Shown here: positions 9,365 through 55,886 of the stretch, piece after piece
Numbering within the stretch: the stretch's first letter is position 1
Layout: every line of letters begins with the position of its first letter
Assembly (NCBI GenBank): GCA_964585935.1
Contig: CAZPFO010000005.1
Coordinates: 1 to 61,403 of the forward strand
Source: an uncultured Methanosarcinales archaeon
GTDB lineage: Archaea; Nanobdellota; Nanobdellia; Woesearchaeales; GW2011-AR4
Length of the DNA stretch: 61,403 bases
Direction of reading: 5' to 3'
Notes under the pieces: generated by a model
Seen by the model: only the letters and a program-made list of their open reading frames with translations
What the model was told of the DNA's origin: nothing
Databases searched by the model: none
Position numbers and translations under genes: made by a program

Positions 9365-9419
9365 AATACTGAATTCTATCTTCAGATTTTTATCAAAACC
9401 ACAACCTTTATAAATAAAT

Positions 9420-9435
9420 CTTAACATACGTTAAG
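9420..9435. promoter_or_regulatory. perfect palindrome CTTAAC-N4-GTTAAG between TATA box and start of HTH-iscS operon
   Basis: TATA TTTATAAA at 9407-9414; palindrome 9420-9435; ATG at 9439. Confidence 0.65.
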
Positions 9436-9438
9436 TTT

Positions 9439-9804
9439 ATGAGTAAAGGAATGCCCCAAGAGCTTGAAGTGTGGTATATACTGCCTTCTATAAGGAGAGA
9501 GCTAGCTAAGTCAATGATCAAGGACTTCAGTTTAAAGCAGAAGGGAGCAGCCTCTTTGCTAGGGTTAACTGAAGCTGCTGTCTCTCAATATGTAAAAGAG
9601 AAGAGGGCATCTGATATCGTATTTGAGAAGAAAATATTATCTGAAATAAAAAAATCAGCAGGCGTTATTGTCAAAGACCACAGCAAGGTTATGGGGGAAG
9701 TTATGAAGCTCTGTAATTTAGTTGATGTTAAAAAAATGCTTTGTGTTTTGCATAAAAAACATGACAAAGGCGTAGAAAAAAAATGCAAAATTTGCTTTAA
9801 GTGA
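9439..9804 (+). CDS. archaeal predicted HTH transcriptional regulator with Cys/His-rich C-terminus
   Basis: PQELEVWYILPSIRRELAK...LGLTEAAVSQY.K.KR family motif; C-terminal C..LH..H...C..C. Confidence 0.8.
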   Translation: MSKGMPQELEVWYILPSIRRELAKSMIKDFSLKQKGAASLLGLTEAAVSQYVKEKRASDIVFEKKILSEIKKSAGVIVKDHSKVMGEVMKLCNLVDVKKMLCVLHKKHDKGVEKKCKICFK

Positions 9805-9808
9805 TAAA

Positions 9809-10951
9809 ATGGAAGTATATCTGGATAATGCTGCATCGACAAAAGTTGATGAGAATGTTGTAAAGGCTATGCTGCCTTACCTTACTGACAAGTATGGAAA
9901 TGCTTCCAGCTTTCATCAGTCTGGCCAGGAAGCAAAAGAAGCATTGGAAAACTCAAGAGAGATAATTGCAAAAAAACTGAATGCAAAGCCAGAAGAAATA
10001 ATTTTTACTTCAGGCGGAACAGAGTCAAACAATTTAGCTTTGAAAGGTGTGGCATTCGCAAACAGGGAAAAAGGCAGCCATATAATAACTTCAATGATAG
10101 AGCATGATTGCGTCTTAAGCACATGTAAATGGCTGGAAAAGCATGATTTTAAGGTTACTTACCTGGATGTTGACGAGGGTGGTTTTGTAAATCCTAAAGA
10201 TGTGGAAAAGGCTATAACAAAAGACACTATCCTAGTTTCAATAATACACGGGAACAATGAAATAGGAACAATAGAGCCAATAGAAGATATAGCTAAGATT
10301 TGCAGGGAAAAAGGAGTTTATTTTCACATAGATGCGTGCCAGAGCTTTACAAAAGTTCTGATAGATGCAAAAAATTTTGATTTGATAACAATCAATTCTC
10401 ATAAAATCCACGGCCCAAAGGGGGTTGGGGCCTTGTATATCAAAAAAGGCACTAAAATTGATTCAATGATGCAGGGTGGAGGCCATGAATTCAGTTTAAG
10501 GGCCGGGACTGAAAATGTATCTGGAATTGTTGGCTTTGCAAAAGCTGCAGAGGTTGCTGATGAGAAGGATATCAAGCATATGGCAAGGCTGAGGGATATG
10601 CTGATTGAGGGTGTGTTGAAAAAAATAAGTGATGTTCAGCTAAATGGGCCCAGGGAAAATAGGTTGTGCAACAATGTGAATATGGCTTTTAATTTTATTG
10701 AAGGGGAATCTTTAATGATGCATCTTGATGGAGAAGGAGTTATGGTATCTACCGGGTCTGCATGCAGCTCAAAAAGCCTTGAGCCAAGCCATGTTTTAAC
10801 AAGTATCGGGCTTAAGCCTGAGATTGCTCATGGCTCAATAAGAATGAGTTTGAGCAAATATACGACTAAAAAAGAGATTGAATATACAATAGATAATTTA
10901 GCTGAAGCTGTTAAAAAATTAAGGGAGATAAGCCCTTTAGTTAAGAATTAA
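9809..10951 (+). CDS. iscS: cysteine desulfurase IscS/NifS
   Basis: YLDNAAST, FTSGGTESNN, SHKIHGPKGVG (PLP Lys), STGSACSS (catalytic Cys). Confidence 0.96.
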   Translation: MEVYLDNAASTKVDENVVKAMLPYLTDKYGNASSFHQSGQEAKEALENSREIIAKKLNAKPEEIIFTSGGTESNNLALKGVAFANREKGSHIITSMIEHDCVLSTCKWLEKHDFKVTYLDVDEGGFVNPKDVEKAITKDTILVSIIHGNNEIGTIEPIEDIAKICREKGVYFHIDACQSFTKVLIDAKNFDLITINSHKIHGPKGVGALYIKKGTKIDSMMQGGGHEFSLRAGTENVSGIVGFAKAAEVADEKDIKHMARLRDMLIEGVLKKISDVQLNGPRENRLCNNVNMAFNFIEGESLMMHLDGEGVMVSTGSACSSKSLEPSHVLTSIGLKPEIAHGSIRMSLSKYTTKKEIEYTIDNLAEAVKKLREISPLVKN

Positions 10952-10986
10952 ATAAAATCATTATAAAAAACCAATTAAAAAATTAT

Positions 10987-11070
10987 TCAATAAATAAAAT
11001 TACCAATAAAAATTAACCATTGTTAAAATAAATTAAAAAAATAACCAATGAGTGCACGAACAATGGTTAA
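10987..11070. repeat. A-rich intergenic repeat (copy 1) with 12-bp inverted repeat
   Basis: 10987-11016 matches 20124-20153 at 29/30; 11043-11062 matches 20160-20179 at 18/20; TTAACCATTGTT(11013-11024)/AACAATGGTTAA(11059-11070). Confidence 0.7.
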
Positions 11071-11086
11071 AATTAAATAATAAATA

Positions 11087-11491
11087 TTGATTAAAATGTA
11101 CACAGAAAAGGTAATAGAGCTGTTCAGGAAACCGCACAACATGGGGGAGATTAAGGATGCGGATGGTATTGGTAAAGTGGGGAATCCTGTCTGTGGAGAT
11201 GTGATGGAACTTTACATCAAGGTAGGCAAGAATAAGAAGGGAGAAGAAGTAATTGAAGAGGTAAAGGTTAAAACTTTTGGTTGTGTTGCTGCGATTGCAA
11301 CCAGCTCTATCATAACAGATATGGTCAAAGGAAAGACAATTGAAGAAGCTAAGAAGATTGGCAAGATGGATGTGGCAAAGGAATTAGGAGGTTTGCCTCA
11401 AAACAAACTTCATTGTTCTGTATTGTCTGCAGATGCTTTGGCAAAGGCCATAGAGGATTATGAGGGGAAGAAAAAACATGATAAACAATAG
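11087..11491 (+). CDS. iscU: Fe-S cluster scaffold IscU/NifU
   Basis: GNPVCGD, KTFGCVAAIA, KLHCSVL: three conserved Cys. Confidence 0.95.
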   Translation: MIKMYTEKVIELFRKPHNMGEIKDADGIGKVGNPVCGDVMELYIKVGKNKKGEEVIEEVKVKTFGCVAAIATSSIITDMVKGKTIEEAKKIGKMDVAKELGGLPQNKLHCSVLSADALAKAIEDYEGKKKHDKQ

Positions 11492-11777
11492 ATCAACAAA
11501 CATTGAAGTTTGCTTGGTTCCCACAAACGATAATGGAATAGATCCAAATCAAGCCAGAGAAATCTTCAGTCAACAACTAGGTAGGATCATAGATAAATTT
11601 AAACTAAGGGGATATAGGGGTTTTGGTGTAATATCTAATCGTCATAAATTAGAAAATGGTGATCCTGATTTGAGGGTATACGGTGTTTATTGGGATAATA
11701 GTCATTCTGTATATAAGTTCAGAATGATTAGCGACAACTTATCCGCTTTTCCATACAAATACGTACCTGGATTATAA
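11460..11777 (+). CDS. hypothetical protein (probable start 11478)
   Basis: Fills gap between iscU and ttuA; no recognisable motif. Confidence 0.5.
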   Translation: MRGRKNMINNRSTNIEVCLVPTNDNGIDPNQAREIFSQQLGRIIDKFKLRGYRGFGVISNRHKLENGDPDLRVYGVYWDNSHSVYKFRMISDNLSAFPYKYVPGL

Positions 11778-11842
11778 ATGCCTGATTTGGAAATTCGATA
11801 ATTAAAGAAACCTTTTTAAAAAAATATTGATTCTAGGGGCTT

Positions 11843-12760
11843 ATGAAACCATGCTGCAATAAAAATCCAGTCTTTACCTTAACAGGCGGAGAGAAGCTTT
11901 GTAAAAATCATTTTCTTGGCTATTTTGAGAAGAAGGTAAGGAAGACAATAAGGACTCATAAGCTTATTGGAAAGAAAGAGGATATTTTAGTAGCTGTATC
12001 CGGCGGTAAAGACAGTACAGTAGCTTTGTTTTTATTAAATAAGATAATCAAAAACAAAAATGTAAAAATTGAAGCACTGCATATTGACCAGTCAATCGGC
12101 AATTACAGCAAAAAAAACAAGGAGAATATCAGGAAATTCTGCAAAAAATACAAGATAAAGCTGCATGAGACTTCTTTCAGGAAGGAATTTGGGTATTCTT
12201 TATGCTACATAGAATCTATACTGAAATCAAAAGGGGCTAATCTAAAATCGTGCAATATCTGCGGCATCTTGAGGAGGTATATTGTGAATAAAGCAGCTAA
12301 GAAGATGAAAGCGACAAAACTGGTTACCGGCCATAATCTTGATGATGAGGCTCAGAATGTAATCATGAATATTTTCAAGAACAATGTATCCTTGCTTTCA
12401 AGGCTCGGCCCAAAAACGGGTTTAGTAGAGGATAAAAAATTCGTTCCAAGAGTCAAGCCATTGTATTTCTGCACAGAAGAGGAAGTTACCTTGTACTGCA
12501 AACTTATGGATTTTGGAGTTGTCCTTGAGCCATGCCCTTGCTCTTTAGATTCTTACAGAAGATCAATTTTGAATATGCTTAATGATTTTGAAGAAAAAAA
12601 TCATGGCACAAAGTATGGAATCATCCAGTCCTTTTTAGATATAAAGCCTTTTCTTAAGACTAAGAATAAGGGCAAAATCAATGCCTGCAAAAAGTGTGGG
12701 GAAGCGGCTGCAAAGGATGTTTGCCAGAGCTGTAAGCTGATTGAGAAGCTGAAAAGATAG
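11843..12760 (+). CDS. ttuA: tRNA 2-thiolation protein, TtuA/Ncs6/TtcA family
   Basis: PP-loop SGGKDS, CNICGILRR, GHNLDDE, terminal zinc-finger Cys pairs. Confidence 0.88.
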   Translation: MKPCCNKNPVFTLTGGEKLCKNHFLGYFEKKVRKTIRTHKLIGKKEDILVAVSGGKDSTVALFLLNKIIKNKNVKIEALHIDQSIGNYSKKNKENIRKFCKKYKIKLHETSFRKEFGYSLCYIESILKSKGANLKSCNICGILRRYIVNKAAKKMKATKLVTGHNLDDEAQNVIMNIFKNNVSLLSRLGPKTGLVEDKKFVPRVKPLYFCTEEEVTLYCKLMDFGVVLEPCPCSLDSYRRSILNMLNDFEEKNHGTKYGIIQSFLDIKPFLKTKNKGKINACKKCGEAAAKDVCQSCKLIEKLKR

Positions 12761-55584: not shown

Positions 55585-55867
55585 AATCCTTTCAAACTAC
55601 TAAAATTGCTTGCGCAAAATTAGTGTTTTAAATCGCTTTCACGATCCTGTTGCAAAAACTTGAGGGTTTTTGTGTTTTTTGGGATTTTGACTTTAAACCA
55701 GGCTGCCCTGATTTTCTTGTTTTAAATGCCCTTTAGTTCTTGTCTGTCCAAAAATTTATTTTTGAACACCTTTAACAGGAATTAAAGGGTTTTAACCTAC
55801 CCCAAAAACATTCTAGTAAATAAGAGAAACATTTAAATATATATACTTATCCCATATATCATATATA

Positions 55868-55886
55868 GCATATATCTTATATATGC
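55868..55886. promoter_or_regulatory. palindrome upstream of PhoU-like regulator
   Basis: GCATATAT-ctt-ATATATGC within several CATATAT repeats downstream of TATA-like TTTAAATA. Confidence 0.5.

Follow-up and report, generated by a model that had tools for sequence, protein, structure and literature searches.

A candidate dedicated regulator of iron-sulfur cluster assembly genes at an archaeal iscS-iscU-ttuA operon

Organization of the iscS-iscU-ttuA operon

The window, i.e. the whole stretch of 61,403 nucleotides analyzed here, contains an operon at positions 9407-12760, in which a TATA-like box and a palindrome precede a small helix-turn-helix (HTH) gene, followed by iscS, an AT-rich spacer of 144 bp, iscU, and ttuA. 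The features were as follows.

9407-9416, plus strand: TATA-like box TTTATAAATA, preceded by a BRE-like stretch (CCACAAC); the order of TATA box and then operator was repeated in homologous loci
9420-9435, no strand: putative operator site 1 (CTTAAC-ATAC-GTTAAG), which separates the TATA box from the regulator ATG (9439); a variant with TA in place of the central AT otherwise invariant in the family
9439-9804, plus strand: putative regulator gene (121 amino acids), whose product starts with a long helix, followed by an XRE-type HTH, then three helices and a tail with the Cys3His set
9538-9594, plus strand: helix-turn-helix (residues 34-52), with the recognition helix TEAAVSQY, nearly invariant family-wide
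9742-9795, plus strand: codons of the predicted metal ligands, C102-x2-H105-x10-C116-x2-C119
9809-10951, plus strand: iscS/nifS-type cysteine desulfurase (Pfam/NCBIfam)
11013-11026, no strand: putative operator site 2, TTAAC-CATT-GTTAA, within the 144-bp iscS-iscU spacer; the sole canonical TTAACnATnGTTAA of the genome
11057-11070, no strand: possible auxiliary site 3, cGAAC-AATG-GTTAA, with 2 mismatches; site 2 is 44 bp away, and the iscU ATG (11096) follows after 26 bp
11096-11491, plus strand: iscU/nifU-type scaffold (Pfam/NCBIfam)
11843-12760, plus strand: TtuA/NcsA-family PP-loop tRNA 2-thiolation enzyme; in several further loci, ttuA and the HTH gene also occurred together

The TATA box, palindromes, and ATG lay where the original prediction, an Fe-S-sensing regulator with its operator, had placed them. 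The iscS, iscU, and ttuA genes that it had named were recovered with Pfam and NCBIfam as a desulfurase of the NifS/IscS type, a scaffold of the IscU/NifU type, and a PP-loop thiolase of the TtuA/NcsA family, the score of the last being below both equivalog cut-offs. A genome search revealed a single IscS in the window's genome, in which no SufB was detectable. A 105-amino acid ORF (11460-11777), overlapping the 3' end of iscU and occupying most of the iscU-ttuA gap, matched nothing in Pfam/NCBIfam, or by tblastn among the 80 loci described below.

Protein family and predicted fold

Only sub-threshold HTH matches in Pfam and NCBIfam were obtained with the window protein alone (P22_Cro, E 0.014); on the other hand, HTH_3 was matched by 19 of 26 relatives (best E 1.2e-6), and a family profile searched against the PDB found only chains with Cro/lambda-type HTH, the best (3e-6) being lambda-repressor-like. 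On these sequence grounds, the protein is assigned to the XRE (Cro/C1-type) HTH superfamily. The C-terminal 37 amino acids had no sequence match in the PDB.

The AlphaFold2 model was all-helical (pLDDT of 95.4), with helices at residues 6-30, 34-41, 45-52, 64-79, 81-92, and 95-108; residues 34-41 and 45-52 together formed a wingless XRE-type HTH, C116 and C119 were located in the tail, and no other ligand-binding domain was present in the 121 amino acids. No solved structure resembling the model was found with Foldseek (best E 0.58), and a similarity to Bcl-2-like helical bundles (VIA wide, best Z 5.1) was taken as a common helical arrangement.

The protein has thousands of relatives, every one of them annotated as a hypothetical protein, an HTH protein, or a transcriptional regulator, and those whose records were read came from Woesearchaeota, Pacearchaeota, Nanoarchaeota, and Aenigmatarchaeota. 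A first search gave 46 close relatives (the closest with 82% and 73% identity). Wider searches gave 886 cluster representatives at E ≤ 0.001 (370 at E ≤ 1e-10) and 3338 proteins matching the profile, and a metagenome scan yielded only identical contigs and distant relatives. The gene was found, mostly as a single copy, in 147 of the 201 genomes sampled from the phylum (~73%).

Genomic linkage to Fe-S cluster assembly genes

Eighty loci from reference genomes (~700 kb in total) were annotated by tblastn and checked with Pfam. In 31 of them, sufB lay directly downstream of the HTH gene in the same direction, usually in an operon of sufB-sufD-sufS-sufU(-sufC), and in 8 the HTH gene was divergent from sufB; it preceded iscS(-iscU, -ttuA) in 24 loci, sufC-sufB in 3, iscU in 2, and ttuA in 2. 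No adjacent Fe-S gene was placed in the remaining 10, several of which were short contigs. The linkage of gene, operator, and Fe-S operon, seen in 60-70 of the 80 loci, covered SUF as well as ISC and extended over two archaeal phyla, and it strongly supported the proposal of a regulator dedicated to Fe-S assembly genes. The single Fe-S system of each genome (SUF or ISC) carried the regulator: the window's genome has iscSU without a detectable SufB, and the sole system of a relative from the same family is a suf operon that begins with the HTH gene and operator, suggesting that the regulator goes with whichever Fe-S system the genome possesses.

In the two loci with ttuA directly after the HTH gene instead of iscS or suf (L047 and L067), no canonical operator was located upstream. 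The tblastn match to sufB was split by inserts of ~0.8-1.2 kb in L018, L028, L035, L036, L046, L049, L051, L069, and L086; these inserts in DPANN loci are probably SufB inteins.

The palindromic operator

Exact TTAAC-N4-GTTAA occurred twice in the 61 kb of the window (0.15 expected), both copies being in the iscS-iscU-ttuA operon, and two copies were reached in 1 of 100 shuffles of the window. In the 1.16-Mb genome, 4 exact copies were present vs 5 of the reversed control pattern; the count alone is therefore non-significant, and placement and conservation carry the weight. The two loose palindromes elsewhere in the genome appeared to be chance occurrences, neither having a central AT: one was in coding-like sequence (as judged by eye, without an ORF check), and the other in an apparent spacer beside a GC-rich element. 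The latter loose palindrome, in an AT-rich spacer, is followed by a GC-rich, purine-rich stretch (G000 contig C1, ~55795-55870; L081:1515-1590), perhaps a small RNA or repeat element.

The motif was also searched for near iscS/suf genes in genomes bearing the family, as the original prediction had suggested. The 700 kb of loci contained 75 exact palindromes (1.85 expected), 66 of which, spread over 60 loci, preceded the HTH gene by no more than 130 bp; the distance to the HTH start was 100 bp or less in 58 of the 80 loci. Most of the other 9 palindromes were directly upstream of sufB; in all 8 divergent loci and in L007, an exact copy stood at this position. The central AT was present in all 66 HTH-upstream sites, by which the operator was refined to TTAAC-n-AT-n-GTTAA (consensus duplex sequence TTAACAATTGTTAA). 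The operator started 0-6 nt past the TATA 8-mer in 41 of the 66 sites. Among five near-complete genomes, three contained the 12-position motif exactly once, immediately 5' of the HTH gene, one had an additional copy elsewhere, and one had no motif; a control pattern had no match in any of the five.

The recurrence of TTAAC-N4-GTTAA at 11013-11026 upstream of iscU, claimed previously, was found as described. Palindromes were likewise present at both places at which operators had been proposed, but the canonical copy is the iscU-proximal site 2 (11013), and not that of the regulator's own promoter (9421). An operator between iscS and iscU was absent from the other ISC loci of the 80-locus set. 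The degenerate copy at 11057-11070 (site 3) was also present, but matches with up to 2 mismatches numbered 9 in the window vs 7.8 expected, and it was thus non-significant by itself; the sole argument for it is that its distance of 44 bp from site 2 falls within the 43-45-bp spacing of the paired sites in L038 (43 bp) and L136 (45 bp).

These results suggested that the 121-amino acid protein is very probably a dedicated, autoregulated repressor, with the palindrome as its operator, of the sole Fe-S assembly operon in the genome, that of a Woesearchaeota-like DPANN archaeon. A dimer would bind TTAAC-n-AT-n-GTTAA through the XRE-type HTH; at the regulator's own promoter, the operator would occupy the space from the TATA box to the start of an mRNA that is probably leaderless, so that the bound protein would block the recruitment of polymerase. 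Canonical site 2 may, along with a weak site at a distance of four helical turns, control a putative internal iscU promoter. The departure of site 1, in the own promoter, from an otherwise invariant central AT speaks against this explanation.

An activator, or chance palindromes in AT-rich spacers with the HTH gene as a mere neighbor, would be consistent with the operators located upstream of, or touching, the TATA box in L018, L022, and L023, and with the loose pattern being as frequent in the genome as the control. This is very improbable in view of the 40-fold excess of sites across loci at a fixed position relative to the TATA box and ATG, the uniqueness of the canonical sites in three near-complete genomes, and the conservation of the gene-operator pair across phyla; moreover, archaeal repressors classically bind between the TATA box and the start.

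Two further occurrences of the canonical operator were noted: one upstream of an FTR1-family iron permease (L007:952-965), and a pair of copies, spaced by 43 bp, in front of a DsbA-like thioredoxin (L038:7341-7397). Both genes are possible extra members of the regulon.

Comparison with IscR, SufR, and MqsA

IscR and SufR are dedicated regulators of Fe-S assembly that sense a cluster, and IscR, with a Cys3His ligand set, exerts feedback control of ISC (PMC8593673). The window protein resembles IscR from E. coli and other bacteria in that it is encoded by the first gene of the operon, has a palindromic operator in the promoter, and carries Cys3His; the promoter-proximal position, with a palindrome in its own promoter, agreed with IscR-like autoregulation. 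In contrast to IscR, which is an Rrf2 winged-helix protein with C-x5-C-x5-C-x2-H, the protein studied here has an XRE-type HTH and C-x2-H-x10-C-x2-C, and its cluster is putative. No match to the Rrf2 domain (PF02082) was obtained for the window protein or 26 relatives, and no Rrf2 protein was found in the window's genome, where the best match, elsewhere in the genome, was 19 bits and below the cut-off.

SufR belongs to the DeoR/COG2345 type and has an AT-hook as well as a [4Fe-4S] site of non-conventional kind near its C-terminus (PMC8593673; bioRxiv 10.64898/2025.12.26.696629), and putative COG2345 SufR homologues have been proposed upstream of some archaeal suf operons (bioRxiv 10.64898/2025.12.26.696629). 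Like the SufR of cyanobacteria and actinobacteria, which represses, the present family heads suf operons and appears dedicated to one locus, with repression being predicted here. On the other hand, the 121-amino acid protein gave weak generic HTH matches only and none to a SufR/DeoR-type model, its HTH was wingless in the AlphaFold2 model, and its family serves SUF and ISC operons alike. As far as sequence can tell, therefore, the protein is not a relative of Rrf2/IscR or SufR, and the COG2345 homologues of the preprint are a different family. The description in the original prediction of "an unrelated functional analogue of IscR" stood in two parts, the unrelatedness (no Rrf2 or SufR signature) and the role as a dedicated Fe-S regulator with an operator, while cluster sensing stays conjectural.

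MqsA-type antitoxins are also small XRE HTH autorepressors with a Cys-ligated metal (structural in MqsA and predicted here), but the match was weak and at the level of the HTH (E 0.029), there is no toxin partner, and the order of the domains differs. A toxin-antitoxin reading, prompted by this match, was ruled out by the genomic context.

Asgard members and relationship to ThiR

Stand-alone members from Asgard archaea headed iscS-iscU with an identical operator, TTAACAATAGTTAA, in L126 (a 3.6-Mb contig) and L130, and of the other Asgard members, that in L122 was next to sufCB/iscSU and that in L098 next to a SufS-like gene. The stand-alone Asgard members carry two Cys sites each. The paralogues in L124, L127, L128, L131, L132, and L133 (the last with the gene order HTH-sufC-sufB-sufD) had an upstream palindrome of ATAAC-N3-GTTAT instead of TTAAC-N4-GTTAA and a recognition helix of TQPAVSYY or TQAAISQY; this pairing of a different helix with a different palindrome hinted at co-variation between protein and half-site.

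Proteins with the HTH joined to a ThiN domain were found in L102-L112 (Asgard) and as P0310, with the full module and seven conserved Cys/His positions. They matched the family profile over positions 2-118 (E 2.9e-19; ThiN, E 3.6e-40): their N-terminus is the whole 120-amino acid module, including the PxE N-terminus, HTH, and C102/H105/C116/C119, and a second Cys set (C7 and C92xxC95) is also present. The window protein, which ends at residue 121, had no match to ThiN. The combination of HTH and ThiN is that given for ThiR in the work of Rodionov et al. (2017, J Bacteriol 199:e00743-16), as cited in PMC10746257. The DNA-binding part of ThiR thus appears to contain the same module, an equation that depends on the HTH-ThiN architecture observed here. 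Palindromic operators are a further common trait, and the two differ in ThiN, which the window protein lacks, and in context (Fe-S assembly vs thiamine). ThiR reportedly bound DNA after aerobic purification, which counts against cluster sensing. Since the Cys/His positions are identical in HTH-ThiN proteins, in which ThiN is the sensor, the site is ancestral to the module rather than peculiar to Fe-S regulators. The family had previously been called uncharacterized; this is only partly right, as its module is apparently common to ThiR.

The Cys/His site and its possible signal

In an alignment of 189 sequences, C102 (95%), H105 (87%, with a further 6% Cys), C116 (96%), and C119 (94%) were highly conserved, and C92 (39%) and H108 (26%) were poorly kept; CxxH-x9/10-CxxC was found in 160 of 188 sequences. 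Conservation of Cys/His in homologs, by which the original prediction proposed to be judged, was accordingly found at four positions, and H108 dropped out of the C..LH..H...C..C cluster that it had described. Sub-lineages with rearranged ligands still head iscSU/suf operons, most of them with a recognizable operator, and retain at least three Cys/His: CxxC...C plus an extra adjacent Cys (H105 to C) in one variant, CxxH...C with the loss of C119 in L137 and L138, only C7 and CxxC in L133 and L134, and a CxCxxCxCx4C tail in L136.

In P0110 (506 amino acids) and P0308 (525 amino acids), the HTH regulator is in-frame with an IscS-type cysteine desulfurase; these rare chains are either real fusions or the result of a lost stop codon.

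By analogy with known systems, the Cys3His center may sense an Fe-S cluster or iron, a reading to which we give somewhat less than even confidence. The conservation of the four ligands with no other input domain in the stand-alone protein, the free rearrangement of ligands in sub-lineages at iscSU/suf operons, the extra operators at the FTR1 iron permease and DsbA-like protein, and the rare HTH-IscS fusions all point in this direction, as does the comparison with IscR, likewise Cys3His, and SufR, both of which sense a cluster (PMC8593673). When IscS/IscU capacity is to spare, an Fe-S cluster (or iron) would be loaded onto the Cys3His center, and the holo-protein would bind DNA and turn the operon off; when clusters are scarce, the apo-protein would let go of the DNA, a polarity proposed purely by analogy. 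The outcome would be product feedback like that of IscR and SufR, on an unrelated fold. This combined explanation, a dedicated repressor with cluster-fed feedback, is our preferred one, and is put forward tentatively.

The same repressor and operator may instead have a Cys3His center consisting of structural zinc, which would hold the C-terminal tail and the dimer together, with control by signal-blind autoregulation or through a partner (IscS, IscU, or SufBD). We regard this as a serious, albeit doubtful, possibility. CxxH...CxxC is the textbook two-knuckle pattern of structural zinc, the Cys/His region of the AlphaFold2 model had a pLDDT of more than 90 without a cofactor, the same positions occur in HTH-ThiN proteins whose effector domain is ThiN, and the Asgard stand-alone members have two Cys sites; the first three of these points also count against sensing by the Cys3His center, and the rare IscS fusions could reflect protein-protein control. 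However, structural zinc knuckles rarely tolerate ligand reshuffling, and here C119 is lost, H105 is replaced by Cys, Cys is added, or the tail becomes CxCxxCxC. It would also be unusual for ~73% of very small genomes to retain a repressor that is blind to any signal, together with an invariant operator, and the precedents of IscR and SufR (PMC8593673), again, are of cluster sensing.

Thiol switches are represented by SurR and by the persulfide sensors CstR and SqrR. In a corresponding arrangement of the same repressor, a disulfide, persulfide, or sulfide at CxxC, possibly fed by the desulfurase, would alter DNA binding. The CxxC pair, an operon that mobilizes persulfide sulfur and includes a tRNA thiolase, the DsbA-like target in one genome, and the HTH-IscS fusions fit such a switch, but the conserved His and the arrangement of four ligands suggest a metal center, some lineages drop one Cys of CxxC and retain the link to the operon, and activation by persulfide would be feed-forward, not feedback; we consider it improbable.

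Novelty and distribution of the regulator

No description of this HTH family was found in the literature on archaeal Fe-S regulation, the operator, or iscSU in Methanosarcina, and, apart from the putative SufR homologues of the preprint, the reviews and primary papers searched named no regulator for the transcription of ISC/MIS or SUF genes in archaea. Judged from genomic comparison, the pairing of regulator and operator is genuine and strongly conserved, and it has apparently gone undescribed; the regulator is likely a dedicated switch for Fe-S assembly genes here and in many other archaea. It thus provides a concrete candidate regulator of archaeal Fe-S genes with a precisely defined operator, conserved across two phyla and hundreds of genomes, and a rare defined regulon for DPANN archaea; the question is reduced to one small protein and a 14-bp duplex, and an origin of the ThiR DNA-binding module is suggested. 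If a cluster is held at the Cys/His site, the protein would represent an Fe-S sensor fold unrelated to the Rrf2 and SufR families.

A broader proposal, in which a pan-archaeal family of Fe-S-sensing repressors (DPANN and Asgard), separate from Rrf2 and SufR, carries plastic Cys/His sites on a 120-amino acid XRE module and serves SUF or ISC/MIS, with ThiR arising from it by fusion to ThiN, is speculative and, taken as a whole, rather unlikely. Outside DPANN and Asgard, it is hinted at by look-alike clusters only.

Tandem-duplicated forms of ~220-280 amino acids (P0196-P0201, P0047, and P0306) were also found; they are possibly single-chain dimers. The sub-branch to which they belong has PCE and a CRIC motif, without the C-terminal CxxH...CxxC.
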